Numbered from the stretch's first letter, positions 3,209-58,640 are shown. The stretch is DNA of 64,000 nt from a virus (IMGVR_UViG_3300032218_003059:1-64000); one strand, 5' to 3'. Notes: generated from the sequence alone by a model not told the origin. Translations and numbers: made by a program.

Positions 3209-3221
3209 CTAAGGAGTTAAC

Positions 3222-16455: not shown

Positions 16456-16466
16456 AAAGTAATAAA

Positions 16467-16475: not shown

Positions 16476-16501
16476 AAAATAAATATAAAAGGGGTAATAA
16501 A

Positions 16502-19500
16502 ATGGCAACAGTAAGAATTCAAGTACGAAGAGGAACCGCTTCACAATGGACCTCAGCAAATCCAACTCTAGCAGCTGGTGAAATGGGTGTCGAGTCAGAC
16601 ACAAACTTATTTAAATTTGGTAATGGTTCTACAGCATGGGCTTCCCTTGCTTATGCCAACAACTCAGATGTAGCGATTGCAGAAATCTCACAAGATGCAA
16701 TTAATAGTGCGCTGAGCGTTGGTTCAGGCCTTACAAAAACATATGATGATGGTGCAAATACAATAGTAATTGCAGTTGCAGATTCATACTTTACAGAATT
16801 AGCACAAGATGCAGTAAACAATGCATTTGTGCCAGGCGACGGAATAGCAAAATCATACAATGATGCTTCAAATACAATCACAGTATCTGTGGTAGATTCA
16901 TATATAACTGAGCTTGCACAAGATTCAGTTAACACAGCAATTATTGCTGGAGACGGTATTGCAAAGGTATACAATGATGCAGCTAATACTTTAACATTAG
17001 ATGCAGATATAGTAGCATCTGGCGGATTAAAGATTGATAATACAAAACTCACAGTAGATACAGATGTTGTAGTTACTAAATTAGCTGAGCAGACAATGAG
17101 CAGCAAAACTCTCACAAATCCAAAAATTAATGGTGGAGTTGCAGTAACAGTAAGCGGAGCACAAATAAACTATTTAACTGGATTAACAAAGAATATTAAT
17201 ATCAGCTATGCAGATGTTTTAAATGATGCAAATGACTATACAGATTCAGCAATTGGAACTCTAGGCAATACAGTAACTTCTGGTTACATACCACTTGCAC
17301 AGCTTGGGCAGGTAGATGGAGTTGCTACATTAAACAGCATTGGTAAAGTTCCAATGTCACAAATTAGCCTTATTGATCCAGCTTTAACTGGAAATGCAAC
17401 AGCAGAAAATCTTACAATAAGTGGAGATTTAGTATTTAATGGTACAGCTACAACAATTAACTCTACAAATCTTAATATTACAGACCCACTTGTTTACTTA
17501 GCAAAAGATAATCCAGCAAACAGTAGAGACCTTGGTATAGTTTCATCATTTACATCTGGTGGAACTTATCAGCATACAGGTATTGTTCGTGATCACACAG
17601 CAAATAAATGGGTATTCTTTAAAGGCGTTACAGATGAGCCAACAACAACAGTAAACTTAGCACAGGGATCCCTTGATGCACTTGCAGTTGGAGCTTTAAC
17701 TGCTACATCTCTGGACCTTGGCTCAGTTTCAAATACAGAAATTGGATATTTAGATGGAGTTACTTCACCAATTCAAACTCAGTTTAATGCAAAAGCTCCA
17801 CTAGCTTCTCCTACATTTACAGGAGTTGTAACTCTTCCATCACAAACAGTTACATCAGCAATGATTGCGGACGGAACAATTTCTACAGGAGATCTTGCAG
17901 ATGCAGCTGTTACAGCTAACAAACTTGCTTCAGATGCAGTTTCAACTGTAAAGATTTTAGATTCAAATGTAACAACAGCTAAAATTGCAGATCTTGCAGT
18001 TGTAGCTGGGAAAATTGCAGATGGGGCCGTAGTTGCTGGTAAATATGGCGCTGGCTCAATCGTAACAACAGATTTAGCAGACGGATCAGTTACTTCAGCA
18101 AAAATTGCTAATGGAGCAATTGCAAATATTGACATTGATGCAGCAGCAGCAATTGATTGGACAAAGCTTGCAATATCATCAACAGTTTCTGCAACAGAAT
18201 TAGGATATGTTGATGGAGTAACTTCAGCAATTCAAACACAAATTGATACAAAGCTTGCAAAAGCTGGCGGAGAAATGACAGGAGACTTAACACTTCGTGG
18301 CAATCCAACAACTAACAACATGGCTGCTACAAAAAACTATGTAGACTCATTAGTTTCTGCTGAAACAACAAATAGAGGAACTGCAATTACAGCAGAATCA
18401 ACAGCTCGTGGCACAGCAATTACAACAGCAGTTTCAACACATGCTGCACTTACAGCCTCACATGGAGTAACTGGTGCAATAGTTGGAACAGACAATACAC
18501 AGACACTTACAAATAAAACTTTAACATCACCAGTTATTAATACCCCAACTGGTATTACAAAGTCAGATGTTGGTCTTGCAAATGTTGATAATACAACAGA
18601 TGCAAATAAGCCAGTATCTTCAGCAACAACAACAGCGCTTGCGCTTAAAGCAAACCTTGCTGGACCAACATTTACTGGAACAGTTTCTGGTATTACCAAG
18701 TCAATGGTTGGGCTAGGATCAGTTGATAATACAGCAGATGCAGACAAGCCACTATCTACTGCAGATATAGCAGCACTTGCTCTAAAGGCTCCACTTGCAT
18801 CACCAGCACTTACAGGAGTACCAACTGCGCCAACCGCAGCAGCAGCTAATAATACAACACAGGTTGCTACTACAGCATACGCAGATCGTGCAGCATCAAA
18901 TGCAGCAGCAGCACTAGTTGCATCAGCACCAGCAGCATTAGACACACTTAACGAGTTAGCTACCGCACTTGGAAATGATGCATCATTCTCAACAACAATG
19001 ACAAATGCATTGGCTGCAAAAGCACCGCTTGCTTCACCAACATTTACAGGCACAGTAACTCTTCCATCTGGAACAGTAACTTCAGGAATGATTCTTGATG
19101 GAACTATTTTAGATGCAGACATAAATGCTTCAGCAGCAATTGCTCAGTCTAAGATTTCAGGACTTTCAACAAGCCTTGGATTAAAGGCTAACCTAGCAGA
19201 TCCTACATTTACTGGAACAGTAACAGTGGGCGCAGCAGGTGTAGCATTTACAGATGGTACACAAACAAAGGAAGGTGTTCCATCACGGACAACAATTCTT
19301 TCAAAGACAGCAGACTATACACTTTCAGCACTTACTGAACGTGATAATATGATTGAAATGAACTCAGGTTCAGCTACAGTGTTATATGTTCCAACAGATG
19401 CTTCTGTAAACTATCCAATTGGAACAACAATAGATATACTTAGAGTAGGTTCTGGAGCAGTTTCAGTAGCTGCTGTAACATCAGGAACTACAACAATTAA

Positions 19501-19600
19501 CGCTACACCAGGATTGAAGCTTCGTGCACAATGGTCATCTGCAACTCTCATGAAGAGAGCAGCAAATAACTGGGTGCTTCTCGGCGACTTGATGGCGTAA
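16502..19600 (+). CDS. Long tail fibre protein with Mtd N-terminal-like domain
   Basis: RIQVRRGTASQWTSANPTLAAGEMGVESDT N-terminus; repeated KAPLASPTFTG modules; C-terminal WVLLGDL domain. Confidence 0.8.
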   Translation: MATVRIQVRRGTASQWTSANPTLAAGEMGVESDTNLFKFGNGSTAWASLAYANNSDVAIAEISQDAINSALSVGSGLTKTYDDGANTIVIAVADSYFTELAQDAVNNAFVPGDGIAKSYNDASNTITVSVVDSYITELAQDSVNTAIIAGDGIAKVYNDAANTLTLDADIVASGGLKIDNTKLTVDTDVVVTKLAEQTMSSKTLTNPKINGGVAVTVSGAQINYLTGLTKNINISYADVLNDANDYTDSAIGTLGNTVTSGYIPLAQLGQVDGVATLNSIGKVPMSQISLIDPALTGNATAENLTISGDLVFNGTATTINSTNLNITDPLVYLAKDNPANSRDLGIVSSFTSGGTYQHTGIVRDHTANKWVFFKGVTDEPTTTVNLAQGSLDALAVGALTATSLDLGSVSNTEIGYLDGVTSPIQTQFNAKAPLASPTFTGVVTLPSQTVTSAMIADGTISTGDLADAAVTANKLASDAVSTVKILDSNVTTAKIADLAVVAGKIADGAVVAGKYGAGSIVTTDLADGSVTSAKIANGAIANIDIDAAAAIDWTKLAISSTVSATELGYVDGVTSAIQTQIDTKLAKAGGEMTGDLTLRGNPTTNNMAATKNYVDSLVSAETTNRGTAITAESTARGTAITTAVSTHAALTASHGVTGAIVGTDNTQTLTNKTLTSPVINTPTGITKSDVGLANVDNTTDANKPVSSATTTALALKANLAGPTFTGTVSGITKSMVGLGSVDNTADADKPLSTADIAALALKAPLASPALTGVPTAPTAAAANNTTQVATTAYADRAASNAAAALVASAPAALDTLNELATALGNDASFSTTMTNALAAKAPLASPTFTGTVTLPSGTVTSGMILDGTILDADINASAAIAQSKISGLSTSLGLKANLADPTFTGTVTVGAAGVAFTDGTQTKEGVPSRTTILSKTADYTLSALTERDNMIEMNSGSATVLYVPTDASVNYPIGTTIDILRVGSGAVSVAAVTSGTTTINATPGLKLRAQWSSATLMKRAANNWVLLGDLMA

Positions 19601-19621: not shown

Positions 19622-21004
19622 ATGGCAAATAAAAAGATAGGTATTAAATCATCAGCCCAGGACAACTTCCTAGAGCCTAAAGCTGTAACAGGTTTTACAG
19701 CAACAGCAGTCAACGGTGGAGCATTTGGAAATGGGTCTGTGTCACTTTCATGGACCCTTCCATCTGATTCACCAGCCGCAACTCTTTATAGCGTTACTTC
19801 AAGTCCCGCTACAACTACACAGACAACATCAGACACAAGCCTTTCTTTTACAGGATTATCTGGAGGAACAGCTTATACATTTACAATAGTTCCTTCAAAT
19901 GCTGTTGGAAATGGTCTATCTACAACATCAGCATCAGCAACTCCAACAACAATTCCCTCAGCTCCAACAAATGTTGCAGTAACATCAACATCTGCTGGTG
20001 TAGATAACTTGACATGGACAGCATCTAATGACGGAGGATCAGGAATAACAGGATACTCTTGGGCTTCATCTGATTCAAAGGCTGGTTCTGTTGGAAACGT
20101 AACTTCCGCAAATATTAATCAAGAACAAGGAACTGCACAGACATACACAGTTTATGCAACAAATGCTAATGGTAACTCATTAACATCAGCAGCATCAAAC
20201 TCTGTTACTACTTTCTTCTCACCACCTTCCTTCTTCTCGCCTCCAGGGTTCTTCTCGCCCCCAGGGTTCTTTGCGCCTCCAGGGTTCTTCGCACCTCCAG
20301 GGTTCTTCTCGCCTCCAGGGTTCTTTGCACCTCCAGGGTTCTTCTCTCCTCCAGGGTTCTTCGCACCTCCAGGGTTCTTCGCACCTCCAGGGTTCTTCTC
20401 GCCTCCAGGGTTCTTCTCGCCTCCAGGGTTCTTCGCACCACCATCATTCTTTACTCCACCATACTTCTGCATTGCTGAAAATACACCAGTATTAACAGAC
20501 GGCGGATATAAGATGGCAAAAGATATACAGGTTGGAGATAACTTAATGACAGTTAAGTTTGACGATATGCCAGTTGGAGATCTTGAATGTATACTGGGAG
20601 AAATTACAGATAACTGTAATACAATATTCAAATCATGGTCATCAGAAACTTTGGACGGGCTAGAATACGTTTCATCTAAAGTAACAGATATATTTGAAAG
20701 CATAGATAAAGATATAGTTATATTTAATAATGATATTACTACAGCCTTATCAACAGTTGAGCTAGCATTAGTTTATACTAATGGTAAGCATTCATTAAAA
20801 GAAGCTTCTGAAATATCTGTAGGAGATTATATTGTAACTTACAATGGTCAAATTAATAATACTCTAGTAACATCTGTTGAATTAGGAGACAAAGCAAATG
20901 CCTACTTATTCTACAGAGAAGGTAATAATATGATTATTACTGGTGGACCAATGGTCGTAAATGGCTGTCCACTATCATCAATGTCCTCATTGATTTCTAA
21001 CTAA
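19622..21004 (+). CDS. FN3-domain virion protein with FFxPPx repeat and C-terminal Hint-like domain
   Basis: Two FN3-like domains (VSLSWT..YTFTIVPSNAVG; DNLTWT..YTVYATNANG), 14 hexapeptide repeats, then CIAENTPVLT...IQVGD Hint block. Confidence 0.8.
   Translation: MANKKIGIKSSAQDNFLEPKAVTGFTATAVNGGAFGNGSVSLSWTLPSDSPAATLYSVTSSPATTTQTTSDTSLSFTGLSGGTAYTFTIVPSNAVGNGLSTTSASATPTTIPSAPTNVAVTSTSAGVDNLTWTASNDGGSGITGYSWASSDSKAGSVGNVTSANINQEQGTAQTYTVYATNANGNSLTSAASNSVTTFFSPPSFFSPPGFFSPPGFFAPPGFFAPPGFFSPPGFFAPPGFFSPPGFFAPPGFFAPPGFFSPPGFFSPPGFFAPPSFFTPPYFCIAENTPVLTDGGYKMAKDIQVGDNLMTVKFDDMPVGDLECILGEITDNCNTIFKSWSSETLDGLEYVSSKVTDIFESIDKDIVIFNNDITTALSTVELALVYTNGKHSLKEASEISVGDYIVTYNGQINNTLVTSVELGDKANAYLFYREGNNMIITGGPMVVNGCPLSSMSSLISN
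20213..20464 (+). repeat. 14 x 18-bp in-frame tandem repeat encoding FF[S/A/T]PP[G/S/Y]
   Basis: Directly counted; unit TTCTTC(T/G)CNCCTCCAGGG. Confidence 0.95.
20468..20962 (+). other. Degenerate Hint (intein/Hedgehog-like) domain
   Basis: Starts with Cys; block A CIAENTPV...IQVGD, ISVGDYI; block B TVEL lacks His; ends GPMVVN instead of VHN. Confidence 0.65.
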
Positions 21005-21024
21005 TTAAATGCTATAGTGGACTT

Positions 21025-21666
21025 ATGTACACAAGCAAGCAAGAGATATTCCCTGGAATGTGGAAATATTCAAATGTTTTTACTGAAGACTTAGATCTAG
21101 TAAATAGAATTGAATATGAAACATCCCAGGGAAATGTCTTTTGGGAAAGAGCTTCAGTTGGACTTGATGCTGTAGAAAATAGCTACAGATTCTGCTCCGT
21201 TTTAAAAATGGATGAATTTGGAGAATCACACCCTTTATATAAAGATATATATCAAGTACAAAAAGAATGTGTAGATGACTATAATTATATGCATAATTTA
21301 GATATAAATTTTTGGGAATGGACTAACATAGTAAAATATGTTCCAAATGAATATTTTAATGAGCATTCGGATCATGGATGGTCTTATGTATCTACAGTAT
21401 CTCTCGTTGGATATCCAAATGATGATTATACTGGTGGCTCTTTATATTTCCCAAAATTAAATTTAAATGTTGTTCCAGAAGCTGGCGACTTATTAATATT
21501 TCCCTCAAGCTACCTATTTTCTCATGTAGCTATGCCAGTTATAACGGGAACAAAGTATTGTTTTGCAACCATGCTTGACTATAATGATGATGCTCATTCT
21601 AGAGAGTATGATGAGTATATAGTAAGAAAATATAATAATGAAAAGAGAGCCTATAATGTTACCTAA
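21025..21666 (+). CDS. 2OG-Fe(II) oxygenase (P4H-like)
   Basis: HSDHG, YPNDDYTGG, FPSSYLFSH, TKY; TGC-TATAGT ends 6 nt upstream (leaderless-type). Confidence 0.9.
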   Translation: MYTSKQEIFPGMWKYSNVFTEDLDLVNRIEYETSQGNVFWERASVGLDAVENSYRFCSVLKMDEFGESHPLYKDIYQVQKECVDDYNYMHNLDINFWEWTNIVKYVPNEYFNEHSDHGWSYVSTVSLVGYPNDDYTGGSLYFPKLNLNVVPEAGDLLIFPSSYLFSHVAMPVITGTKYCFATMLDYNDDAHSREYDEYIVRKYNNEKRAYNVT

Positions 21667-22357
21667 TGCAGAGTTTATATACCCAGGAATTTTAGTATAC
21701 AGAGACGTTTATACAAAGGACATGGACCTTGTTAATAGACTTGAAGAGTCTTTATCAAGCGATCCAAATGCTGAGGGTATAGGGTACTCTGATGCACCAC
21801 ATGCAAAATATAAATGGAAGCAGGCTACAACTGGATATAGCAATAATGATTTAAAATACAGAGATTGCTATGATTTTAAAATTAAAAAGAACATATTTGA
21901 TGACACTGGTAAAAGCAAAGAGCAACTTAAGCTAGAAAAAATATGGGAAGATGCAAAGCAGGCACAGGTAGGTCCAGTTCAAGACTACTCTCAGATGTTT
22001 AACCTTGCCCCACTAACATATTGGGAATCTTTTAACTTTGTTAAATATGGTAAAGATCAGCACTTTCAAGTACATTCCGATCATGGCTATTCTTATATTT
22101 CAGTATTATCTTCAGTAGGATATCCTAATGACGACTATGAAGGCGGAGAATTATTTTTTGATAAGATAGGCGTAACAATAAAACCAAAAGCAGGCGATTT
22201 ATATCTGTTTCCATCTTCTTATATATATTCTCATGCAGCACTTCCAGTAAAAAGCGGAGTAAAATATTCAATAGTAACGATGCTTGATTATCATGAAGCT
22301 CCACATACACCTGACTATCGTGAGATAGAAGAAAGGTATAAGTTAATTCGTGATTAA
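21638..22357 (+). CDS. 2OG-Fe(II) oxygenase (P4H-like)
   Basis: HSDHG, YPNDDYEGGEL, FPSSYIYSH, VKY. Confidence 0.9.
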   Translation: MKREPIMLPNAEFIYPGILVYRDVYTKDMDLVNRLEESLSSDPNAEGIGYSDAPHAKYKWKQATTGYSNNDLKYRDCYDFKIKKNIFDDTGKSKEQLKLEKIWEDAKQAQVGPVQDYSQMFNLAPLTYWESFNFVKYGKDQHFQVHSDHGYSYISVLSSVGYPNDDYEGGELFFDKIGVTIKPKAGDLYLFPSSYIYSHAALPVKSGVKYSIVTMLDYHEAPHTPDYREIEERYKLIRD

Positions 22358-23069
22358 TTTTGAAGTATATAAAGATGACGGACCAGTTGCTAACATAGAG
22401 CCCCTTTCAGCAAAAAGAGATTGGATGGAGGCTACATTTGATAAGCATGCATATAGATGCTTACCCGTAACTTTAACCAATCAGTTAGGCTGGGCCATAT
22501 CTTTTCCAGAAGATATAACATTTATGTGGGACGGACAAATATCTACTTCTGGAGAGCATATTAAAGTTTTAGCTGGAGAAAAGTATATTCAAACAGGAAG
22601 AGGGCAAGCTACCGTAAGCTTTGAAACAGGTCTAGTTTTTAGAACACCAGAAAACTATAGCCTTTTAACATACAATGTTCCAAACATGTTTATGGAAGGA
22701 GTTTCTCCATATACTACAATAATAAGCTCATCCTTTTTTGAAGGACCACTTCCAGTTGCTTGGAAAATCACAAAAGCATTTGTACCAATAACAATAAAAG
22801 CTAATCAGCCAGTAGCTGCTGTATTTCCAATATCTCTTGCTAATATTCAAGGATCTACGTTAATAATAAAAAATATAAAAGATTTGATTAGGGTTAAAAG
22901 AGATATTCCTTTAGATTTAGATGAAGCAGTAAAGTCAGCTGCAGATGCCGCCGCTAATGGCGGGTGGACAGATTATTACAGAAATGCAATAGACTATATG
23001 GGAAACAAACTTGGAAGACATGAAGCTAAGTCTTTAAAATTATTAGTTAAAGATGAGTCAAATGAATAA
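22350..23069 (+). CDS. DUF6065-like protein
   Basis: RDWM...AYRCLPVTLTNQLGW..P...WDG signature recalled for DUF6065; GTG start. Confidence 0.65.
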   Translation: MINFEVYKDDGPVANIEPLSAKRDWMEATFDKHAYRCLPVTLTNQLGWAISFPEDITFMWDGQISTSGEHIKVLAGEKYIQTGRGQATVSFETGLVFRTPENYSLLTYNVPNMFMEGVSPYTTIISSSFFEGPLPVAWKITKAFVPITIKANQPVAAVFPISLANIQGSTLIIKNIKDLIRVKRDIPLDLDEAVKSAADAAANGGWTDYYRNAIDYMGNKLGRHEAKSLKLLVKDESNE

Positions 23070-23775
23070 GATTAGTTTTTGGTCAAATAGGCCAGCGAAT
23101 AACGATACCACAATCCCCGTAACTGCTAAAAAAGTTATGCCTCAGTGGTTTTTAGATGCTAAAAAATATTGGAAAAATGAAGAAGGAAAAGAATACATAA
23201 TTGCAGAAGGAGAAAAAGGTCTTGGGTTCAAGGCTTGTCCAGCTCTTTTAGATTTATTTAATTGTGGATACATGTTAGTTACTCCATGTGATGTTGTAGT
23301 TTATATGCAAGAAGGAAAAAAATTAATTGTTTCTTCACCAGAATTTCCAGATTTTTGTGAGGCTAGACCTTATATGAATGAATTTAGTTATCCTTATGGA
23401 TACGCAACAGATTCATTTCATTGGTTTCCAAGCTGGGGATTTGATTTGCCAAAAGGGTATAGCGCACTTGTTGTTCACCCTTTAAATAGATACGATTTAC
23501 CATTTTTAACAACAAACGGTATAATTGATAGTGATAAGTATGGTTCACCAGGATTGATGCCATTTTTTATTAGAGAAGATTTTACAGGGGTGATCCCAAA
23601 AGGAACACCGTTTGCACAAATAATTCCTTTTAAAAGAGAAGACTGGAAAGCCGAATATGATTTTATTGAATTAAACGATATGATTAAAAAGCACGAAGAG
23701 ACTGTAAATAAATATAGAGTCCCCTTTGGTGGGATTTATAAAAGATATACTTGGGTTCAAAAGAAGTACGAATAG
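23053..23775 (+). CDS. Conserved phage hypothetical protein, DUF6065-related
   Basis: KACPA...GYML.TPCD, PKGYS..HPLNR.DLPF, GTPFAQIIPFKREDW. Confidence 0.6.
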   Translation: MSQMNKISFWSNRPANNDTTIPVTAKKVMPQWFLDAKKYWKNEEGKEYIIAEGEKGLGFKACPALLDLFNCGYMLVTPCDVVVYMQEGKKLIVSSPEFPDFCEARPYMNEFSYPYGYATDSFHWFPSWGFDLPKGYSALVVHPLNRYDLPFLTTNGIIDSDKYGSPGLMPFFIREDFTGVIPKGTPFAQIIPFKREDWKAEYDFIELNDMIKKHEETVNKYRVPFGGIYKRYTWVQKKYE

Positions 23776-23784
23776 GGGATAAAA

Positions 23785-24477
23785 ATGGATAGAGAATTAA
23801 CTTACAAAGAAGACATTAGAACATCTAGAGAATCAATAACTCCTTCAGGTTATTTTGGCGGATGCAAAGAAAATATTGTAGAAATAGAAAACTTTTTAAC
23901 CGAAGAAGAGTGTGACTTCCTTATACTTTTTGCCAAGGGGAACACAGTTTGGGATGTAACTAAATCGGCAGTTAATGAAAATGGCAATGTTATTTATGAT
24001 GCAGATGTGTGGAAAGATCGTGTTGCAACAAGAAAGTCTTTAGACGAGTCAAATCCTTTAGTTTCTCCAATGCTAGAAAAAATAATTGAAAGATTAAAGC
24101 CAGTAATAGAAAAACATTTTAATGTTGAAGTAAATCCAACTGGTCCATGTATAGTTCGATGGCCAGAAGGAAGTATGCAATGGCCACATGCAGATAAAGA
24201 GCTTCATGAGGGACCAGATGCTGGAACTCCAAATAACTTTCCGTGGTATGACCTAGGAACGGTATTTTATTTAAACGATGATTACGAAGGCGGAAGATTG
24301 CATTTTCCAAGACAAGAAATTGCTTTTAAACCAAAAAAGAGAGCCGTATATTTTTTCCCAGGAGATTTAAATTACATCCATGGAGTAGACGTCATAACAA
24401 GTGGCGTCAGATACACCTCACCTTGGTTCTGGACAATAACAAAGCTAAATGAAAAGGAAGTTACTGTAAATGAATAA
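23785..24477 (+). CDS. 2OG-Fe(II) oxygenase (P4H-like)
   Basis: HAD, YLNDDYEGG, IHGV, VRY. Confidence 0.9.
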   Translation: MDRELTYKEDIRTSRESITPSGYFGGCKENIVEIENFLTEEECDFLILFAKGNTVWDVTKSAVNENGNVIYDADVWKDRVATRKSLDESNPLVSPMLEKIIERLKPVIEKHFNVEVNPTGPCIVRWPEGSMQWPHADKELHEGPDAGTPNNFPWYDLGTVFYLNDDYEGGRLHFPRQEIAFKPKKRAVYFFPGDLNYIHGVDVITSGVRYTSPWFWTITKLNEKEVTVNE

Positions 24478-25258
24478 AATAGAATTACACCCTAAAGTAA
24501 TGGTCTATAGAGACTTAATAAAAAATGTGCCAAAAGTTTTTAAAGCTATAACTGATTCACATGATAATTCAGGAGAAAATTATTTTAATCCATGGACAGA
24601 CTGGAGTAAGTTTGGCATTTATGCAAGTGTCAAGGGGGACCACGAGATAGTTGGTAGACTAGGATCAGATCCAGTATTTGATAATGAATATGAAATTGTT
24701 CAAGAAGTAGAAAATGCTTACAAAGTAGCAATTGATGATTATGTAAAAACTTATGACATTCAATTACCAGAAAATAGCAGATTAAATTCTTCTTCATTTT
24801 GCAGATACCACGAGGGCGTAGATGTGCTTGAGAATGATTTAACTATGCAATATCATACTGACTACAAGCAGTCAGAAAAAGAAATGCCAGGCAATCACTT
24901 CTTTATTACATGCACTACTTACATAAACGATAATTACACTGGCGGAGAAATAGAGTTTTATATTGATGGAAAGTTTATAACACATAAGCCAGTTGCTGGA
25001 GATATTATGGTATTCCCATCAGTAGAGCCTTACTACCATGGAGTAAAAACAATTACTTCTGGATATAAGTATTTAATTAGAAATTTTATAACATATAGAT
25101 ATCCAGGATCTAAAGAGTGGCTAGAAAACCAAATAGAATTTGGGGCTGTTCGCTGGGCAAAGATGGAAGCAGAAAGAATTGAAAAAGCTAGATTTAATGG
25201 AAACATTATTATAAAAAATGGTCAGGTTGTATCTGGGCCAGGTATGGAGTCAATGTAA
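24470..25258 (+). CDS. 2OG-Fe(II) oxygenase (P4H-like)
   Basis: HTD, YINDNYTGGEI, YHGV, KYLIR. Confidence 0.9.
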   Translation: MNKIELHPKVMVYRDLIKNVPKVFKAITDSHDNSGENYFNPWTDWSKFGIYASVKGDHEIVGRLGSDPVFDNEYEIVQEVENAYKVAIDDYVKTYDIQLPENSRLNSSSFCRYHEGVDVLENDLTMQYHTDYKQSEKEMPGNHFFITCTTYINDNYTGGEIEFYIDGKFITHKPVAGDIMVFPSVEPYYHGVKTITSGYKYLIRNFITYRYPGSKEWLENQIEFGAVRWAKMEAERIEKARFNGNIIIKNGQVVSGPGMESM

Positions 25259-25260
25259 TT

Positions 25261-25971
25261 ATGGACATAGTTAAACTAAAAGAAGATGCATTTATTGTAA
25301 ATAACTTTTTAACTTCAGAAGAGTGCGAGTCTGTTATAAAGTACTTTGATGCCATAACTGCAGCTGGTGTTTTAGATTGGAATCAGATATCTTTCTTTGG
25401 TTCTTTTGCAATGGGATATTGGCCAACAGATGAAAACCTTCTTCAGTTTAATTTACCAGCAAATTATTTTAATTTAGTTAAGAAAAAAATTCAAGATGCT
25501 GGAGAGATGTTGTTTGAAAGAGAGTTTAACGAGGTTAGCTTTCACGCACAGAAATGGGTAGACGGAGCATTTGCAGCTTTTCACTCAGATAATTCTGACG
25601 AACACGGAAATCCAAATGCTTTTCATAAAAGTAAATATGCTGCGTTTATATATTTAAACGACAACTTTGATGGAGGTCTTCTTAACTTCAAGCATGATGA
25701 TGTTACTGTAAAGCCCGCTATTGGCATGCTAGCCTTTTTTAAAGGTGGATATATGAACGAGCATGAAGTAACCACAGTAAAGGGCGGAGATAGATATACA
25801 ATAGGATCTTTTTGGGATAATGCAGATGAAGTATATGATGAAGAAACTATTAAAAAATGGGAAGATGAATTAAAGCAAACAAGAGCTCTTCAAGAAGAGC
25901 AATATAAAGAATGGGACGAGAACGTAAAACAAGGTCAAATTCCTCAATATAAGGGGAAGTATGATTATTAA
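25261..25971 (+). CDS. 2OG-Fe(II) oxygenase (P4H-like)
   Basis: HSD, YLNDNFDGG, EHEV, DRY. Confidence 0.9.
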   Translation: MDIVKLKEDAFIVNNFLTSEECESVIKYFDAITAAGVLDWNQISFFGSFAMGYWPTDENLLQFNLPANYFNLVKKKIQDAGEMLFEREFNEVSFHAQKWVDGAFAAFHSDNSDEHGNPNAFHKSKYAAFIYLNDNFDGGLLNFKHDDVTVKPAIGMLAFFKGGYMNEHEVTTVKGGDRYTIGSFWDNADEVYDEETIKKWEDELKQTRALQEEQYKEWDENVKQGQIPQYKGKYDY

Positions 25972-26548
25972 TAAGTTACATGATAATATCTATTACTATG
26001 AAAGAGCAATCAATAATCCTAAAGAGCTTTTAAAGCATCTAGATAAAAATGTTTGGGAGAGGTGGATGTCTTCCGATGGTGGAGAATTTTATGGCCACTC
26101 CCAAGGAGCTATGTTTGGAAGCGAAGAAATAGGATCCACAATAAATGAAAAAAATGGAATGATATTAAAGGAGATTTTTAACTCCGCTATTTTTGCTGCA
26201 AACAATTATTCAGATGCAACAGGAATTGATATTGGTTATCTTCCACCATTCTTTGCATTTAAAAAATATAATACTGGTATTGGAATGGGCCCACATGTTG
26301 ATAAATATAGTGGAAAAGATAAAAAGTCTACGCTATCAATGGTCATATATTTAAATGACGATTCCGAAGGCGGAGAGATAGAGTTTGCTAATCAAGGAAT
26401 ATTATTAAAGCCAAAGGCTGGCAGCATAATTGTATTCCCTCCTGGGAAACCCTACATGCATGAGTCTAAAAAAGTAACAGAGGGAAATAAATATATGATC
26501 CCGCTATTCTTTTTTAAAGATAAAAAGCCAAGAGCCAGCAAAAAATGA
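25961..26548 (+). CDS. 2OG-Fe(II) oxygenase (P4H-like)
   Basis: HVD, YLNDDSEGGEI, MHES, NKY. Confidence 0.88.
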   Translation: MIINKLHDNIYYYERAINNPKELLKHLDKNVWERWMSSDGGEFYGHSQGAMFGSEEIGSTINEKNGMILKEIFNSAIFAANNYSDATGIDIGYLPPFFAFKKYNTGIGMGPHVDKYSGKDKKSTLSMVIYLNDDSEGGEIEFANQGILLKPKAGSIIVFPPGKPYMHESKKVTEGNKYMIPLFFFKDKKPRASKK

Positions 26549-28188
26549 GCTATCTATTAAAAGCAATTAAAGATCATCCAATAGCCTTCTGGCCTTTAGA
26601 TGAGTCTTCTGGCCTAATTGCTTACGATATCTCTCCGTGTGGGAATAACGCTACATATACTGGCTCTTTATCAACATCTAGAATGCCTTTAGTTTCTGGA
26701 GGGCAATATGGAACTAAAATTGATTCAACGCATTATATATCTTATTCAGTTAACAATGATTATCAAGGAACTTCAATAGGCGGTAGTTTTGCAAAGCAGG
26801 ATTATTCTGATAATGATTTTACCCTAGAATGTTGGTACTACCCACTCAAGCTCGACTCAACATATCAGGTAATATTTGGAGACTCAAATCAATGCTCCAT
26901 TCAGGCAAACAATTCAAATATTCAGTTTCATGTACACGATGAAATTATTCAGTATACAATTCCTAATCAAAAAAAGAATACACATATTGTTGCTACCTAT
27001 CATCCAGGAAGAATGTCTTTATATGTTGATGGCAAACTAGCTGTTTCTAAATCCATGTCAGACTTTAAGTTTTTAAATGAATCTCTTACAATTCAATCTA
27101 AAGCAACTGGATCATCTTCTTTTTTAATTGACGCTCCAGCAATATATAGATACGAGTTAACTGATACAACAATACTAGATCACTATAATAGCAATATCTC
27201 AATTGAGCCAATTCACATAGTTACACCAGATGGCGGAAGCCTAATAGAATTCTATGATAATAATATTGCAACAAAATTTAAATACCTTTATCCCTCAAGC
27301 AAACCCTGGCAGGAATTAGTTGCCGACGGACTAGTATACAATTCAGACCAGGATTCTTTGCAAATGAGATATGTTTCTGAGGGAGGGACAAAAGAAGTAG
27401 AAGTAGTAGAATTTATAAGTATTCCAATAGATATATATAATATAGCCTCAATAAATAAAATTCAATGGATATCAAGTTTAGGAATTTCAGTATATATTAG
27501 TTATGATGGAGAGACCTATACAGAATGTATAAATGGTAAAGCAAACCAAATAACCTCAAACGATTTTTATCTAAAGATTAAATTTACATCCTCAAATGCA
27601 TCTGAATTTATTCCATCGATATCCTCACTTGCAATAAAGCTTATGTCTTCAGACCTGACAATGTATTCAAAAAATACAGGAACATATGTCGACAATTTTA
27701 TTAGCTCATCAATTTTGGACAAATATCCAGTTATGCAAAGAAATTCCCAGAGCGGTGTATTTTGCAGCAGTTCTGGAACTTTTGACATTCATCAAAATTT
27801 TCCTGTAAATTCAATTGAGTTTTTGTATACCCCATACTTAGTATCTGGAACAAGATCTGCCTCTTTCCCAGCTGGCAATATATACGTAAACGGTATATTA
27901 AAAACAGGATCTAATATGTCAGATTTATTTAATGTTGGAGAAATGCACCATGTTGTCATAAATACTTCTGCTATATCAAGCCTTTTAAATTTTAATGCCA
28001 GCGGTAATTCAGCGCTATTTCAGCATATAGCTTTGTACGCTAACCAGCTTAACGCTGGAAAGATATTAAATCATTATAACCTATACATCGGGAGACCCTC
28101 AATATCTGTGTCAGAATCGTCTTTCTCTGTGACAGAAAACCTTTTTAAAGCATATAATAATAACTGGATGGTTATTCAAAACTCATAA
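26545..28188 (+). CDS. LamG/concanavalin A-like domain virion protein
   Basis: AFWPLDESSG, FTLECW, HIVATY, LYVDG, IDAPAIY motifs. Confidence 0.75.
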   Translation: MSYLLKAIKDHPIAFWPLDESSGLIAYDISPCGNNATYTGSLSTSRMPLVSGGQYGTKIDSTHYISYSVNNDYQGTSIGGSFAKQDYSDNDFTLECWYYPLKLDSTYQVIFGDSNQCSIQANNSNIQFHVHDEIIQYTIPNQKKNTHIVATYHPGRMSLYVDGKLAVSKSMSDFKFLNESLTIQSKATGSSSFLIDAPAIYRYELTDTTILDHYNSNISIEPIHIVTPDGGSLIEFYDNNIATKFKYLYPSSKPWQELVADGLVYNSDQDSLQMRYVSEGGTKEVEVVEFISIPIDIYNIASINKIQWISSLGISVYISYDGETYTECINGKANQITSNDFYLKIKFTSSNASEFIPSISSLAIKLMSSDLTMYSKNTGTYVDNFISSSILDKYPVMQRNSQSGVFCSSSGTFDIHQNFPVNSIEFLYTPYLVSGTRSASFPAGNIYVNGILKTGSNMSDLFNVGEMHHVVINTSAISSLLNFNASGNSALFQHIALYANQLNAGKILNHYNLYIGRPSISVSESSFSVTENLFKAYNNNWMVIQNS

Positions 28189-52838: not shown

Positions 52839-55800
52839 ATGGCCAACAATTCAAGCATATACAATGGATCATCCTGGGTTAAATTAAAAGCAATAAAAAT
52901 TTATAATGGCGGATGGCAGACAGTTAAAAAAGGTTTTATTTATACTGGAACAGCATGGGCTAGATTTTGGCCATCAGCTGGACCATATACAACAACATCT
53001 CCAAGTATACGAATAGACTCATATACTGGAAAATCTGTTGGCTCTGTAATTCAAATGGGCCCAAGACTAAGCAGCATAGAAGACAATACTCCGCCACTTA
53101 CAATTCCAGATGGATTATCTGGTGCTACATATTTGTGGGGGCAAGATGGTGTTTGGGCAAATAATACTAATGCTGTAATTAATAGATATTTTTATTACAA
53201 TTCATCAAATGATTTTACTAATGCATCTGCAATAAATGGTGTAACTGATAAGCTATCAAATACTAGCGGAACAATAGATTCATATGACGCAAAATATTTA
53301 TGGTATTACGTTACACAAACTACAGATGCAATGGGAGAGGACCAAAGCGAGTCATTGTATTTAATTAAACAAAGGCCAGCACCACCAATATCTTTTTTAA
53401 TAGATACCTCTACAGATCCAACAGTTGGCAAACCAGTAACAGTTAACTATTCTTTAAACACGGATTGGTATAGAAATGCAAAACTTAGTTTAAGCTATAT
53501 AGAATGGTTTGCAGAAACTACATTAAATCCAACATACTCATCTCCAGCCCAAACAGATTATTTGTCTGCAAATAGCGGTTCAAAAACATTTACTCCAACA
53601 GAAGCAGAAAAAGATAAGTATATATTTGCAAGAATAACAATAGCAAATTCATACTCAGATTATTATGGAAGTTCTTATGTAAGAACAGCGGAAGACTATA
53701 ATATTAAAAAGGTTGGCGCAGCGCAGCTCGCACCTAACTCAGGAACTGTATCAGTATCTCCATCAACTGGAACCGCTGGAACTACAACATATATTCCTAT
53801 ACCAGCAGGATGGAAGGGTCCTCCTGATATATTTACCTACACCTATTCATGGAGAATATTAAAGCCAAACTTACAATATCAAGAAGTAGGAACAGGATCG
53901 ACATTTGCTCCAGCGTTAAACTTCAATACTGCGTATCCAAACTTTGAAACTCGCTTATTTTGGACAGTATCAAATGGAATAGCTCCAGATGCAACTGGTA
54001 GTACAGGATTTACTGTAAATAATGCATTAATTACAAGAACACTTTCGTTTAGCGCTAATGGAGGCACAGGTGCTCCTGCAGCACAAACTGGTACAGACAA
54101 TGGATCTGGAGCAACCATTACAATAACAAACTCAATTCCAACACGAGACGGGTACAGATTTTTATATTGGAATACTTCTCCATCAGACATGGGAGGAACA
54201 ACATATGCACCTGGAAATAGTATTACTCTTAATACAGATGTAACTCTTTACGCAATGTGGAGTCTAATTTTAGTTGCTCCATACGGCGGAAGCACATCAG
54301 TTGATCCAACTTCTGGAGTATCTGGAACTCTATTTAGAGCAAGTACAAGCGGCTGGTCTGGCACTCCAAATTCATTTACCTATTCTTTTTCCTGGCAAGG
54401 CCTGTCAACATCAAACTACAATTATGTAGAACTAGGAACAGGATCTACATTTTATTCTTTTGGAATAAATCTAAACACCTACCTTGCATTTAGAGTTGTT
54501 GCAACTGCAACAAATGCCGCTGGATCTAGCTCAGCTCCTGCAGATTTTTCAATAACAATTCCATCATATACTAGAACACTTTCCTTTAGCGCAAACGGTG
54601 GAGTAAGCGCACCAGCAGCACAAACTGGCACAGACAATGGATCTGGAGCAACCATTACAATTACTACATCCACTCCAACTCGGTCTGGGTACAGATTTTT
54701 ATATTGGAATACTTCTCCATCAGACATGGGAGGAACAACATATAGTCCTGGAAATAATATTACTATAAGTTCAGATGTGACTCTATATGCAATATGGAGC
54801 CTGGTCCTTGTTCCGCCAAGTGGTGGGAGCACATCAGTTTCTCCAACTTCTGGAACCGTTGGTACAACATATACAGTAAGCACCTCTGGTTGGAGTGGAA
54901 CGCCAAATTCATTTACTTATGCATATTCCTGGCAAGGTTTATCGACTACGGGATACAATTATGTACAACTAGGAACAGGATCTACATTTAATTCTTCTGG
55001 AATAAACGTGGCAAACTACCTTGATTTCAGGGTTGTAGCAACAATTACAAATGCTGCTGGTTCTGTTCAAGATACAGCATACTTCTCAGTAACAGCTGCT
55101 ATAAATACAATTGCAACAATTGCTACACAGAATACAATTGCAACAATTGCTACACAGAATACAATTGCAACTCAGAATACAATTGCTACACAGAATACAA
55201 TTGCAACTCAAAATACAATTGCTACACAGAATACAATTGCTACACAGAATACAATTGCTACAATTGCTACACAGAATACAATTGCTACAATTGCTACACA
55301 GAACACAATTGCTACAATTGCTACACAGAACACAATTGCTACAATTGCTACAATTGCTACACAGAATACAATTGCAACTCAAAATACAATTGCTACACAG
55401 AATACAATTGCTACAATTGCTACACAGAATACAATTGCTACAATTGCAACTCAGAATACAATTGCTACAGGTGGAGGAGGTTGCTTTGTTTACGGCACTG
55501 AAATTCAAATGGCAGACGGAAGCTGGAAGAATATGGAAGACCTATATATTGGAGATCAAGTTATGGGTATAGATATTCCTACAGTCCCTTATGAGGATAG
55601 TATGGGATTTGACTATATTCCAACATGGACATCTACAGATGTTTCTGGTACAATAAAATCTGTAGCTACTGTTATAAATGTAGATAACAGATCATTTGAT
55701 AGCTATTATTTAATTAATAATCAAGTAAAGGTTACATATGAGCATAACGTATTGGTTCAACAAGATGGAATATGGAAATTTATCATGGTTGAAGATATTA

Positions 55801-55970
55801 ATGTTGGAGACAATATAATGAACGAAAACCTTGAAATAGTTCCAGTTTTATCAAAAGAATTAATAAATGAAACAGTAAATACTACATCAATAAATATTGA
55901 CGATATTGATGTTTATACCGTAAGGGGCATGGTTGCCCACAATATAACAAGTAAGGCGGGGGCCAATTGA
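52839..55970 (+). CDS. Fibre/adhesin-like virion protein: Ig-like and InlB B-repeat-like domains, (X-X-Thr)41 repeat, C-terminal Hint domain
   Basis: Two RTLSFSANGG...PTR.GYRFLYWNT...TLYA.W (Listeria-Bacteroides repeat-like) modules; IAT/QNT repeat; GGGG-CFVYGT...TYEH...VAHN. Confidence 0.85.
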   Translation: MANNSSIYNGSSWVKLKAIKIYNGGWQTVKKGFIYTGTAWARFWPSAGPYTTTSPSIRIDSYTGKSVGSVIQMGPRLSSIEDNTPPLTIPDGLSGATYLWGQDGVWANNTNAVINRYFYYNSSNDFTNASAINGVTDKLSNTSGTIDSYDAKYLWYYVTQTTDAMGEDQSESLYLIKQRPAPPISFLIDTSTDPTVGKPVTVNYSLNTDWYRNAKLSLSYIEWFAETTLNPTYSSPAQTDYLSANSGSKTFTPTEAEKDKYIFARITIANSYSDYYGSSYVRTAEDYNIKKVGAAQLAPNSGTVSVSPSTGTAGTTTYIPIPAGWKGPPDIFTYTYSWRILKPNLQYQEVGTGSTFAPALNFNTAYPNFETRLFWTVSNGIAPDATGSTGFTVNNALITRTLSFSANGGTGAPAAQTGTDNGSGATITITNSIPTRDGYRFLYWNTSPSDMGGTTYAPGNSITLNTDVTLYAMWSLILVAPYGGSTSVDPTSGVSGTLFRASTSGWSGTPNSFTYSFSWQGLSTSNYNYVELGTGSTFYSFGINLNTYLAFRVVATATNAAGSSSAPADFSITIPSYTRTLSFSANGGVSAPAAQTGTDNGSGATITITTSTPTRSGYRFLYWNTSPSDMGGTTYSPGNNITISSDVTLYAIWSLVLVPPSGGSTSVSPTSGTVGTTYTVSTSGWSGTPNSFTYAYSWQGLSTTGYNYVQLGTGSTFNSSGINVANYLDFRVVATITNAAGSVQDTAYFSVTAAINTIATIATQNTIATIATQNTIATQNTIATQNTIATQNTIATQNTIATQNTIATIATQNTIATIATQNTIATIATQNTIATIATIATQNTIATQNTIATQNTIATIATQNTIATIATQNTIATGGGGCFVYGTEIQMADGSWKNMEDLYIGDQVMGIDIPTVPYEDSMGFDYIPTWTSTDVSGTIKSVATVINVDNRSFDSYYLINNQVKVTYEHNVLVQQDGIWKFIMVEDINVGDNIMNENLEIVPVLSKELINETVNTTSINIDDIDVYTVRGMVAHNITSKAGAN
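54036..55100 (+). repeat. Tandem duplication, period 537 bp (179 aa)
   Basis: AGAACACTTTC..TTTAGCGC.AA at 54036 and 54573, with long near-identical stretches. Confidence 0.85.
55101..55469 (+). repeat. 41 in-frame 9-bp units encoding X-X-Thr (25 IAT, 15 QNT, 1 INT)
   Basis: Directly counted; 369 bp. Confidence 0.95.
55482..55943 (+). other. Hint (intein/Hedgehog-like) domain, 154 aa
   Basis: Cys1 CFVYGTEIQMADG, block B TYEH, INVGD, terminal VAHN; +1 residue is Ile followed by a short tail. Confidence 0.88.
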
Positions 55971-56566
55971 ATTCGCCCAGTAATATGATAAAACAAGTAC
56001 TTAGCGATAAATTAGTAATATATCAAAATGCTATACCAAACCCAAAAGAACTTATAAAAGAGTTTGAAAACACTTTAACAGAATTTAATCAGTCATGGAA
56101 AAAATCAGTTATAAATGATTTTGAGTATAATAGCGATCTAAGATCGTGCACAATATTCTCACTTTTTGTTAATGACTCTGATGATGCAGAATGGGCTAAA
56201 GCAAAAGTAAGCTTAAATCAAAAAATTAATAAATTTGTTTCCGAAGCATTTTTAGACTATTGCAAAACTTATGAGTACAAGGTAAAAAATAAAGAGCCTT
56301 GGGAAATATGTAGATATGAAGAAACTCAAAAACTAGTTTGGCATACAGACGATGGGCCAACACACCCATGCGATGTATCTTTTGTAATTTATTTTAATGA
56401 TGATTACGAGGGCGGAGAAATTCAATTTAAAGAGCATTTAGATGGTTATCCTTATAAGCCACCAGCTGGCAGCATAATAATATTTCCATCAAAATCAACA
56501 CACATTCATAGGGTGATACCAATTACAAAAGGAATAAAGTATGCTGCAATTAGCTTCGCCAAATAA
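55967..56566 (+). CDS. 2OG-Fe(II) oxygenase (P4H-like)
   Basis: HTDDG, YFNDDYEGGEI, IHRV, IKY; true start may be ATG 55985. Confidence 0.9.
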   Translation: MNSPSNMIKQVLSDKLVIYQNAIPNPKELIKEFENTLTEFNQSWKKSVINDFEYNSDLRSCTIFSLFVNDSDDAEWAKAKVSLNQKINKFVSEAFLDYCKTYEYKVKNKEPWEICRYEETQKLVWHTDDGPTHPCDVSFVIYFNDDYEGGEIQFKEHLDGYPYKPPAGSIIIFPSKSTHIHRVIPITKGIKYAAISFAK

Positions 56567-57143
56567 AATATACGAAGGAATTTTGGTTTACAATAATTCT
56601 AACGGAGCTGATATTCTTTTACAAAGCATTGAAGATCTTTTAACAAACTCTACTGATGCAAGATGGAGTCCTTCTAGAATTATAAAGTCTAAAGAAGAAG
56701 GTTATGTCGTAGATAAATCTATAAGAGATAATTTATATTTTTGGCTAAACTACAGTTTAGATTATGAAAAAGAAACAAAGTCAAAAATGATGAAGATTAG
56801 CTCTATGATAGACACTGCAATTATTCCATCATTAAATGACTATCAAAATAAATACAGTGTTCAAATTAAAACCAGAGATCCATATGAGCTTTTAAAGTAC
56901 TATGAAAACAATCATCTATCCTCTCATACAGATGATGGCGGAGCCAACCACTCTAGAGTATCTTTGTTATTTTATATAAACGATGATTACGAGGGCGGAG
57001 ACATAGTGTTTGATTATTTAAATATATCATATTCTCCTAATATAGGAGACATAATAATATTCCCTTCTTCGTACATATATAGACATCACGTAAATAAGGT
57101 TACGAAAGGTATCCGTTACTGCATTGCGGATTTTATGGCATAA
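56541..57143 (+). CDS. 2OG-Fe(II) oxygenase (P4H-like)
   Basis: HTDDG, YINDDYEGGDI, FPSSYIYRH, IRY. Confidence 0.9.
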   Translation: MLQLASPNKIYEGILVYNNSNGADILLQSIEDLLTNSTDARWSPSRIIKSKEEGYVVDKSIRDNLYFWLNYSLDYEKETKSKMMKISSMIDTAIIPSLNDYQNKYSVQIKTRDPYELLKYYENNHLSSHTDDGGANHSRVSLLFYINDDYEGGDIVFDYLNISYSPNIGDIIIFPSSYIYRHHVNKVTKGIRYCIADFMA

Positions 57144-57682
57144 TGAAAAGTAGAAAGATTTTCCCAGGCGTATTTGCCTATTCTGATTTTTTTGATGATC
57201 CTATGGAAATTTTTAGCAATGTGGAAGACATGGGTGGGTGGCACCCAGCAGAAGCTGGTGCATATGGCGAAGGCCCTTCTATAGTCGAGGAGAGAAGACG
57301 TGGGCTAATGTATAATCTACAAAGAGATCCCAATGTAAAAAAAATAACTGCAATGTCATTAGAGGCAATTAAACATTATAAATCTTTTTATGGATTAAAT
57401 TTAAAAAATCTAGAGGGCTGGTGCCTACTAAAGTATAGAGAAGGTGATTTTTTTTCTGCACATACAGATGACTCTCACGACTTCCCTAGACAAATATCTA
57501 TGGTTTACTACGCAAATGATGACTACGAAGGAGGTGAACTAGAGTTTATATTTTTTAATAATTTAAAGATTAAGCCAAACGCTGGCGAGCTAGTTATATT
57601 TCCATCTAACTACTTATTTGTTCATAAGGTAAATCCAATAACCAAGGGTGAAAAATATGCTGCAACATCGTTTGCCTATTGA
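57143..57682 (+). CDS. 2OG-Fe(II) oxygenase (P4H-like)
   Basis: HTDDS, YANDDYEGGEL, FPSNYLFVH, EKY. Confidence 0.9.
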   Translation: MKSRKIFPGVFAYSDFFDDPMEIFSNVEDMGGWHPAEAGAYGEGPSIVEERRRGLMYNLQRDPNVKKITAMSLEAIKHYKSFYGLNLKNLEGWCLLKYREGDFFSAHTDDSHDFPRQISMVYYANDDYEGGELEFIFFNNLKIKPNAGELVIFPSNYLFVHKVNPITKGEKYAATSFAY

Positions 57683-58640
57683 TAAAAAAATATTTATCTC
57701 AATACCTTCATATGAAGATGAGCTATTGTTAGAAACAATTAATGACGCATTATTAAAGGCAAAGAATGCTTCAAGGCTTACATTTGGCGTTGCCCTGCAA
57801 TATAAAAAAATTGATAAACCAGACCTATCTTTTTTAGGAAATCAATTAAAATTAATAGAATATGATGTTGACAGCAGGCCAGGGATAATCGAGATAAGAA
57901 AAAATATAGCGGATTTAATTGAAGACGAGGAGTACTTTCTTGGCATAGATGCTCACACCCTTTTTGCCCAAAACTGGGATCAACAATATATAGATGATCA
58001 CCAGATGCTAATTGAAAAAAATGGTAATAGTAAAGTTTGCATTGCATCTAGAATTAATGGATCTGAGTCTGATTTTAAAAAAGATTTATATTCAGAATAT
58101 TTAGATACTAGATGGATTTTAGATATAAACAAAAATAACGTATATGAAACTTGGTGGGACTGGCCAGTAGATGTCAAAAATAGGCTTTATGATACTCCAG
58201 AGTATGTAAAAAGATACTTTGTTTCTGCAAACAACTGGTTTACAACTTCAGAGTTTTTTATAAACAACCTGTTTTGGTGTTTCAATAAAACGGTATATGA
58301 AGAACCACAGATATCCCTATCATTATTTTTAAATAACTACGATGTATACCTGCCAACAAGCAAGGTGCTTGTCATAGCTAATCCAAAATCACAGACAACA
58401 AATAGGGAAAATAAAATTCATTGGCAAAACCCTAGTCATAAAAATTGGAATCACGACAGCATAGAGGTAGTCAGAGAAGTATTTAAGTTATTCTATACTG
58501 GCAAAAGCAATATATTTAGTCTGAATAGGCCAGATGATATATATAAATGGTGGAATGCAATCGGCTTATACGAAAAAGCCAAAGAGGTATCCGATAGGCT
58601 TAAAACTCTGCATTTAGATAGGACATACTACTTAGACTAG
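57648..58640 (+). CDS. GT-A glycosyltransferase resembling Skp1-hydroxyproline / polypeptide GlcNAc transferases (GT60-like)
   Basis: IFISIPSYED...LTFGVALQ and YFLGIDAHTLFAQNWD (DxH) match recalled Gnt1-family motifs; start may be TTG 57672. Confidence 0.72.
   Translation: MKNMLQHRLPIDKKIFISIPSYEDELLLETINDALLKAKNASRLTFGVALQYKKIDKPDLSFLGNQLKLIEYDVDSRPGIIEIRKNIADLIEDEEYFLGIDAHTLFAQNWDQQYIDDHQMLIEKNGNSKVCIASRINGSESDFKKDLYSEYLDTRWILDINKNNVYETWWDWPVDVKNRLYDTPEYVKRYFVSANNWFTTSEFFINNLFWCFNKTVYEEPQISLSLFLNNYDVYLPTSKVLVIANPKSQTTNRENKIHWQNPSHKNWNHDSIEVVREVFKLFYTGKSNIFSLNRPDDIYKWWNAIGLYEKAKEVSDRLKTLHLDRTYYLD

Follow-up and report, generated by a model that had tools for sequence, protein, structure and literature searches.

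A Phe/Pro-repeat protein with a Hint domain as candidate substrate of an adjoining oxygenase cassette in a tailed phage

What do the 2-oxoglutarate (2OG)-Fe(II) oxygenases of phages act on? Genes for these enzymes rank with the most frequent "auxiliary" genes in aquatic phages, and no substrate is known for them; T4-like cyanophages carry up to 24 copies per genome, whose function has not been investigated (PMC9602691). A locus in the viral contig IMGVR_UViG_3300032218_003059 poses this question together with a possible answer. The window analyzed here comprises bases 1-64000 of this 86,241-bp IMG/VR contig, which is about 80% complete. Within it, a gene for a repeat protein, here called REP, is followed by six oxygenase genes (OXY1 to OXY6) and two DUF6065 genes (Table 1). 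A preliminary description had taken the Phe/Pro-rich hexapeptide repeat of REP to be the substrate of the oxygenases. On the sequence and comparative evidence presented below, the repeat protein is likely to be tied functionally to the oxygenase cassette. Hydroxylation of the repeat by the cassette would be the best single explanation of that tie, and we give it an even chance.

Translation of 19622-21004 (+) yields the 14 hexapeptides that had been described, 11 of them ending in PPG. These 11 units read FF[S/A]PPG; unit 1 is FFSPPS, unit 13 FFAPPS, and unit 14 FFTPPY. Tandem Repeats Finder reported a period of 18 (11.3 copies, 90% matches, score 317) and also a period of 54 (score 356). The reading frame is genuine because it is continuous with two fibronectin type III (fn3) domains upstream in the open reading frame (ORF; Pfam E=2.4e-9) and with a confidently folded domain downstream. 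Three alternative-frame ORFs that run across the array, 20152-20703 (-), 20208-20447 (-), and 20271-20495 (+), are by-products of the tandem repeat and not genes. Synonymous codon changes between units were confirmed as well, and they are more telling between orthologues (27 IMG/VR loci, 26 of them with downstream DNA), where they include TCN to AGC serine switches. The pattern F-F-small-P-P-G stays constant in units and orthologues while the codons vary. Judged from these codon comparisons, the repeat is maintained at the protein level despite synonymous change. The best conserved region among the orthologues is the N-terminal part of REP, at 58-74% identity.

The eight genes 3' of REP are as tightly packed as first reported, neighbors being at most 20 nt apart or overlapping by up to 29 nt. 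Their assignment to six oxygenases resembling prolyl 4-hydroxylases (P4Hs) and two DUF6065-like genes likewise stands (PF13640 and phrog_61 for the former, PF19541 and phrog_7084 for the latter). The PF13640 gathering score (27 bits) is exceeded by five of the six oxygenases, and OXY3 falls below it. All six retain the HxD...H triad and a Lys or Arg about 10 residues past the second His. Across 21 aligned sequences, H146, D148, and H199 (OXY2 numbering) are invariant, and the Lys/Arg precedes Y210. OXY2 is the most conserved paralogue, with about 77% identity in near relatives. Its best PDB matches are two protein hydroxylases, the Bacillus anthracis P4H (E=3.5e-5) and lysyl hydroxylase LH3 (E=1.8e-3), and for this reason "P4H-like" is a fair term at the family level. 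Pfam did not detect DUF6065 in the gene at 23053, which was assigned by the other profiles given in Table 1. The idea that DUF6065 is a degenerate oxygenase was rejected, as hhalign gave a probability of 0.3%. DUF6065 and oxygenase genes alternate in many related loci (OXY DUF OXY DUF and so on), and this gene order suggests that the two families are functionally paired.

The first line of evidence for the tie comes from the genome itself. A hidden Markov model (HMM) scan of all ORFs of the 86-kb genome revealed exactly two Hint (Hedgehog/intein-like) ORFs, which are also its sole two genuine peptide-repeat proteins: REP and the protein at 52839..55970. An oxygenase cluster lies directly 3' of each. 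The probability of both Hint genes having an oxygenase next to them by chance is P=0.025 when gene order is shuffled, falling to P=0.005 if each cluster is moved as a block. Of the 17 oxygenase-like ORFs in the genome, six lie at 260-5433, six at 21025-26548, and three at 55967-57682; the other two stand singly. In a maximum-likelihood tree, clade A (support 94/86) consists of exactly OXY1, OXY2, the three oxygenases at 55967-57682, and the first oxygenases after the Hint genes of two loci from another phage lineage, L038 and L047, whose repeat proteins have PASTA-type or other N-termini. Clade A holds every oxygenase that is the first gene after a Hint gene, and none from the 260-5433 cluster, from solitary positions, or from other contexts.

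The second line of evidence is the persistence of the arrangement across phages. The order repeat gene, OXY, OXY, DUF, DUF, four OXY is kept in all 26 orthologous loci with downstream DNA, and the 27 loci share the wider order tail fiber, repeat gene, cassette, LamG, portal. In a reverse search, an alignment of clade-A oxygenases was compared with IMG/VR, and the best 80 loci of at least 542 matching stretches were evaluated. Oxygenase genes are present in all 80, and a cassette of 5-11 oxygenase and DUF6065 genes in all but L134, which has two oxygenase ORFs and no DUF6065. A gene encoding fn3 domains and a Phe/Tyr/Pro repeat lies 5' of the cassette in 61 of the 64 loci with enough upstream DNA, and its product is homologous to the REP N-terminus (33-55% identity). 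A Hint domain is encoded at the end of just 16 of these 61 genes; in the remainder, the product terminates with the repeat or carries a short Cys-rich tail behind it. The adjacency of repeat gene and cassette therefore persists despite loss of the Hint domain, variation in cassette size from 5 to 11 genes, and inserted ORFs. The commonest repeat in the clade is FFPP or FFP; FFxPPG is one variant, and PPG is missing in most members. From these counts, the repeat protein and the cassette form a stable pair in which the Hint domain is optional and PPG is not required.

The cassette also tracks the type of repeat: PP-type repeats have it, and most S/T-P types are without it. Oxygenases and DUF6065 come after the polyPro/PPFVPP or APP-type repeats of L038 and the P0020 contig (a related-locus search with P0020 gave no relatives). 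A strict rule that oxygenases occur only with PP-type repeats was rejected, since the FGFTP repeat of L047 is followed by a single oxygenase. This covariation bears on a further possibility, that the cassette modifies the tail fibers (14346-19600), the LamG protein (26545-28188), or the fn3 domains of REP, the repeat being an unmodified linker or stalk. Tail-fiber and LamG genes do bracket the cassette in the window and in relatives. In addition, the repeat of the second Hint protein lacks Pro, so the clade-A enzymes may recognize another shared feature. However, the two Hint proteins share only their repeat-plus-Hint layout and differ in their N-termini (fn3 versus Flg_new), and oxygenases follow the L038 gene although its N-terminus is PASTA-like. 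Together with the co-variation of repeat and cassette, this makes another virion protein an improbable target.

Several observations weigh against the repeat as substrate. Eight of the 17 oxygenase-like ORFs adjoin no repeat gene. The loci L036 and L039-L043 encode FGFSP or FTP repeats with a Hint domain and have no oxygenase nearby. The second module's repeat, made up of IAT/QNT units, contains no proline, and for this reason the clade-A enzymes cannot all be prolyl hydroxylases. Since most clade members lack the Hint domain, it must be dispensable for the role of the cassette. One large phage clade supplies most of the comparative support, so that the conserved synteny is possibly inherited rather than selected, and only a handful of contrasts are truly independent (the second module, L038, L047, and the P0020 contig). 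Finally, 304 cultured phages, most of them T4-like cyanophages, have homologues of the oxygenases in non-structural surroundings, where no such repeat protein accompanies them. The phrog_61 expansions of cyanophages belong to the same PHROG and Pfam family as the cassette oxygenases, yet they are at most 35% identical, reside among replication genes, and adjoin no repeat protein.

Part of this evidence would fit a cassette that is an auxiliary block acting on host proteins, a metabolite, or nucleotides, and that is co-inherited with the repeat gene at a variable spot after the tail-fiber genes. The replication-gene context in cyanophages and the eight oxygenase-like ORFs without a repeat neighbor point this way. 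So does a weak match between the DUF6065 profile and a viral dUTPase (WSSV wsv112, E=0.09), which covers motifs III-IV (G-x-I-D-x-D ... G-T-P-x-A-Q) and hints at a nucleotide ligand; a dUTPase fold for DUF6065 is a weak lead from profile comparison. Against a target outside the phage proteins, clade-A oxygenases directly follow both repeat/Hint genes of the genome, and the same adjacency recurs in the different lineage of L038 and L047. It also outlasts Hint loss, ORF insertion, and changes of cassette size in the 61 of 64 loci. Moreover, the characterized relatives of the family are protein hydroxylases, and the genes lie within a structural block and are translationally coupled. We therefore regard an auxiliary block as unlikely, although it deserves serious consideration.

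If the repeat is hydroxylated, which known enzymes offer the closest analogy? The preliminary description relied on the collagen-type X-Pro-Gly consensus. REP does contain 11 X-Pro-Gly sites, and the HxD...H plus Lys motif is common to OXY2, collagen P4H, the B. anthracis P4H, and LH3. However, the REP repeat is not collagen, as Gly does not occupy every third position, and PPG is missing from most relatives, where FFPP and FFP prevail. The collagen argument is therefore weak, and P4Hs of the algal and viral type are a better analogy. What holds of the substrate proposal is the functional link, carried by the two in-genome clusters, clade A, the 61 of 64 loci, and the P4H-like family with its HxD...H motif; the collagen consensus no longer contributes to it. 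A related viral system is the collagen hydroxylase/glycosyltransferase of Mimivirus. The P4H of the chlorovirus PBCV-1, like algal and plant P4Hs, resembles the present case in that a virus-encoded enzyme of the P4H family occurs with Pro-rich repeats and that Gly is not needed, which fits FFPP. The similarity is at the superfamily level only (OXY6 versus 5c5t, E=0.6). In addition, unlike PBCV-1, the phage has 5-11 paralogues per cassette along with DUF6065, genetically linked to one repeat protein. PBCV-1 had been cited as precedent, and this is valid insofar as its P4H hydroxylates peptides in vitro; its biological role is unknown, and a search for hydroxyproline in virion proteins was unsuccessful (PMC7019647).

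The regular spacing of small residues raises the possibility that the repeat is a collagen-like or polyproline-II trimerization stalk and the Hint domain a cleaved assembly chaperone, as in phage tailspikes, with hydroxylation unneeded. Every third residue of FFxPPG is small (S/A/G, then G), some orthologues have a perfect FFGPPG, and collagen-like proteins occur in the fiber modules of related small phages. A collagen-like triple helix was nonetheless rejected, since in the unit F-F-[S/A]-P-P-G glycine appears only at every sixth residue and PF01391 gave no match. The commonest repeats of the clade, FFPP and FFP, lack this periodicity, and a stalk would leave the linkage to the cassette unexplained. 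We consider it very improbable.

The 1043-aa repeat protein of the second module is followed by three clade-A oxygenases and a PF11397 glycosyltransferase. This arrangement recalls the Skp1 pathway of Dictyostelium and Toxoplasma, in which the P4H PhyA acts first and is followed by the GT60 GlcNAc-transferase Gnt1; PF11397 is the family of this Skp1 hydroxyproline GlcNAc-transferase. The likeness lies in P4H-family oxygenases adjoining a PF11397 transferase in the second module. A PF11397 gene also stands directly 3' of a second FFxPPG-Hint protein in the relative L015 (E=7e-41). Conversely, the 21025-26548 cassette has no transferase, and the second module's repeat has Thr and no Pro. A Hint-profile search did not find the second module in five related full records, and a related-locus search with the C-terminus of its repeat protein gave no relatives.

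The preliminary description did not include the C-terminal Hint domain of REP. This domain forms the last 178 residues, and its Cys283 immediately follows the last repeat unit. Pfam gave only sub-threshold Hint and intein matches for the C-terminus, a word-based homologue search with the domain found nothing, and a full HMMER scan of 1.8 billion proteins retrieved just 37 relatives. The family profile matches the bacterial intein-like (BIL) domain of PDB 2lwy (E=7e-9) and many inteins. An AlphaFold2 (AF2) model built with the family alignment reached a pLDDT of 91.6, versus an unusable 35 from the single sequence. The top Foldseek match of the model is the Hedgehog autoprocessing domain HhC (6tyy/1at0, E ~5e-6, TM 0.76), followed by inteins and BIL domains, and among the PDB matches listed at E<=1e-3, all 47 are Hint domains. 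On the strength of this model, the REP C-terminus has the Hint fold.

Whether the domain is active is a separate question. All aligned members that extend to the Cys1 column have Cys there, apart from P0017 and P0028, for which the N-terminus is uncertain. Two departures from the canonical motifs tell against activity in REP. Block B reads S-T-V-E instead of Thr-x-x-His; the family consensus is [S/T]xx[H/Q/E], and the canonical form occurs in few members, including the genome's second Hint domain, which is canonical throughout (Cys1, TYEH, C-terminal HN). In addition, REP lacks the penultimate His (V-N447). The block B deviation makes activity less likely and leaves the assignment of the fold untouched. 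With both His residues missing, self-cleavage is plausible but not assured, and on its motifs the domain would plausibly be of the cleaving, Hedgehog/BIL type. The terminal Asn447 is retained and followed by Gly; in relatives, HN is followed by K, L, A, Y, or I, with 0-13 residues after it. Because no nucleophile (Cys, Ser, or Thr at +1) follows the Asn, cleavage is expected instead of splicing, and a splicing intein was rejected. Like Hedgehog (Hog) and BIL proteins, REP carries a C-terminal Hint domain with Cys first, and its fold matches HhC, 2lwy, and inteins. Unlike them, it is phage-encoded, follows a Phe/Pro repeat, has S-T-V-E in place of TxxH, and lacks the sterol-recognition region.

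We propose the following scheme for the maturation of REP. The protein would probably be made together with the tail-fiber gene products. The adjoining PF13640 oxygenases would hydroxylate residues of the 84-residue Phe/Pro repeat, with the clade-A pair OXY1/OXY2 as prime candidates. Proline would be the most likely target, by analogy with P4Hs of algae and viruses, which accept Pro-rich stretches without Gly. The remaining four paralogues may be further modifiers or partners, as may both DUF6065 proteins. The Hint domain would then undergo an N-to-S acyl shift at Phe282|Cys283 and cut itself off, leaving fn3-fn3-repeat as the mature product, and water, or possibly an acceptor to which the chain is transferred, would resolve the thioester. 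The locus as a whole could thus be a late-gene module that matures a virion-fiber accessory protein, a reading on which we are evenly divided.

A bolder form of the scheme would join the oxygenases (in some modules with the GT60-like transferase), the repeat, and the Hint domain into one maturation machine, in which the thioester is passed to a hydroxyl or amine acceptor and the fiber appendage becomes covalently tethered or cross-linked, a Hedgehog-like ligation performed by a phage. Candidate acceptors would be an enzyme-installed hydroxyl on a neighboring repeat, a virion protein, or a cell-wall component. We regard this form as a long shot. Of the further ideas in the preliminary description, Phe hydroxylation, modification at several positions, and a polymer of adhesive or amyloid-like character are speculation.

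The contig belongs to a tailed phage; the window encodes a ribonucleotide reductase, a protease, a portal (28585-30174), and tail-fiber-like proteins (14346-19600). Portals of large Streptomyces phages share about 57% identity with the one encoded here, and WhiB, sought as a clue to the host, is absent. Nucleotide and protein searches with the repeat gene locus gave no matches in cultured phages. Because a tail-fiber-like gene lies directly upstream of the repeat gene, the locus was assigned to the late structural block; a homologue of this gene also precedes the repeat gene in related loci. Promoter and terminator scans gave no difference from shuffled sequence.

Table 1. Coordinates of REP, its domains, the adjoining cassette, the second module, and the flanking genes in the window
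Feature	Coordinates	Strand	Supporting matches
Tail-fiber-like protein, 1032 aa	16502..19600	+	several PHROG tail-fiber families, phrog_454 E=1e-25
REP, 460 aa: N-terminal peptide, two fn3, Phe/Pro repeat, C-terminal Hint	19622..21004	+	
REP N-terminal part (aa 1-197), two fibronectin type III domains	19622..20212	+	Pfam fn3 E=3.9e-11, two stretches
Array of 14 hexapeptide units FFxPP[G/S/Y] (aa 198-281), candidate hydroxylation substrate	20213..20464	+	
Hint (Hedgehog/intein-like, BIL-type) domain, Cys283 start, 13-aa tail after Asn447	20468..21004	+	
OXY1, PF13640 2OG-Fe(II) oxygenase, clade A	21025..21666	+	Pfam E=7.3e-8, phrog_61 E=2.7e-24, HxD...H + Lys
OXY2, PF13640 oxygenase, clade A	21638..22357	+	Pfam E=7.2e-12; residues H146, D148, H199, K209
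DUF6065 paralogue a	22350..23069	+	Pfam PF19541 E=1.8e-33, 116.5 bits (cut-off 26.6)
DUF6065 paralogue b, divergent	23053..23775	+	phrog_7084 E=2.7e-31, own HMM E=3e-62, Atlas clusters carrying DUF6065
OXY3, oxygenase	23785..24477	+	Pfam 23.7 bits (gathering score 27), phrog_61 E=3.6e-18, triad intact
OXY4, oxygenase	24470..25258	+	Pfam E=5.2e-8, phrog_61 E=1.5e-16, triad intact
OXY5, oxygenase	25261..25971	+	Pfam E=9.2e-10, phrog_61 E=2.7e-21, triad intact
OXY6, oxygenase	25961..26548	+	Pfam E=3.5e-13, phrog_61 E=8.8e-22, triad intact
LamG protein, 3' flank of cassette	26545-28188		
Second repeat + Hint protein, 1043 aa: Flg_new, 41 tripeptides (IAT/QNT), GGGG, Hint	52839..55970	+	
Three clade-A PF13640 oxygenases directly after second Hint gene	55967..57682	+	
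PF11397 'GlcNAc' (GT60-like) glycosyltransferase, last gene of second module	57648..58640	+	Pfam E=3.2e-13

In the literature searched, we found no description of the repeat/Hint/oxygenase arrangement, no mention of DUF6065, and no paper on a C-terminal Hint domain in phage fiber proteins; the phage examples met were terminase inteins. The arrangement joins a viral P4H-family enzyme and virus-encoded Pro-rich repeats with a predicted Hint autoprocessing domain. A defined oxygenase cassette stands beside a single phage-encoded repeat protein here and in related IMG/VR loci, which number at least several hundred. The main value of the finding is that the repeat offers a testable candidate substrate for phage 2OG oxygenases so far without a function. 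If the proposal is true, the cassette would represent the first system dedicated to hydroxylating a structural protein of a phage post-translationally. DUF6065 would then gain a function as well, and a subset of loci would reveal a new use of Hint autoprocessing in virion assembly.

Several further observations concern the relatives of these genes. The distant Hint relatives belong to a different, smaller phage type with collagen-like fiber genes, and their N-termini are PASTA-like or fn3. In L036 and L039-L043 (P0009, P0014, P0023, P0030), a PASTA-like or fn3 part, an FGFSP/FTP repeat, and a Hint domain make up a protein encoded beside an SLT_3 lysin and collagen-like fiber genes; L039 and L040 have two such genes each. 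A DUF6065 gene is retained in L039, L040, and L045 despite the lack of an oxygenase nearby. In L015 (1786-5610), and also in L009, L013, and L014, the second FFxPPG-Hint protein has 873-919 aa and contains (TP)n linkers, Cys-rich modules, six FFxPPG units, and a Hint domain. Within the present genome, the ORF at 260-1360 (366 aa) carries two tandem oxygenase domains (HMM stretches 18-162 and 186-354) and heads the cluster that has no adjoining repeat gene.

The Hint-less repeat proteins (L065:1997-2935, L105:1949-2923, L056:2051-2953, and others) have either no further sequence behind the repeat or a tail of about 25-40 aa rich in Cys, which may be a small knotted or metal-binding domain. Between such repeat genes and the cassette lies a family of ORFs of about 142 aa with the motifs W-N-G-T-S-F-S-G-G and W-D-G-T (L065:2972-3400, L084:2952-3389, L105:3000-3437, and others); it is not Hint-like and is absent from the genome of the window. 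Finally, the start of REP (19622-19720) and the N-termini of P0008, P0011, P0012, P0022, and L046 share a peptide of the approximate form K-[K/R]-x-G-x-x-S-x(3-4)-N-D-F-L-x-P. This peptide is common to the fn3-type members and may be a virion docking motif.

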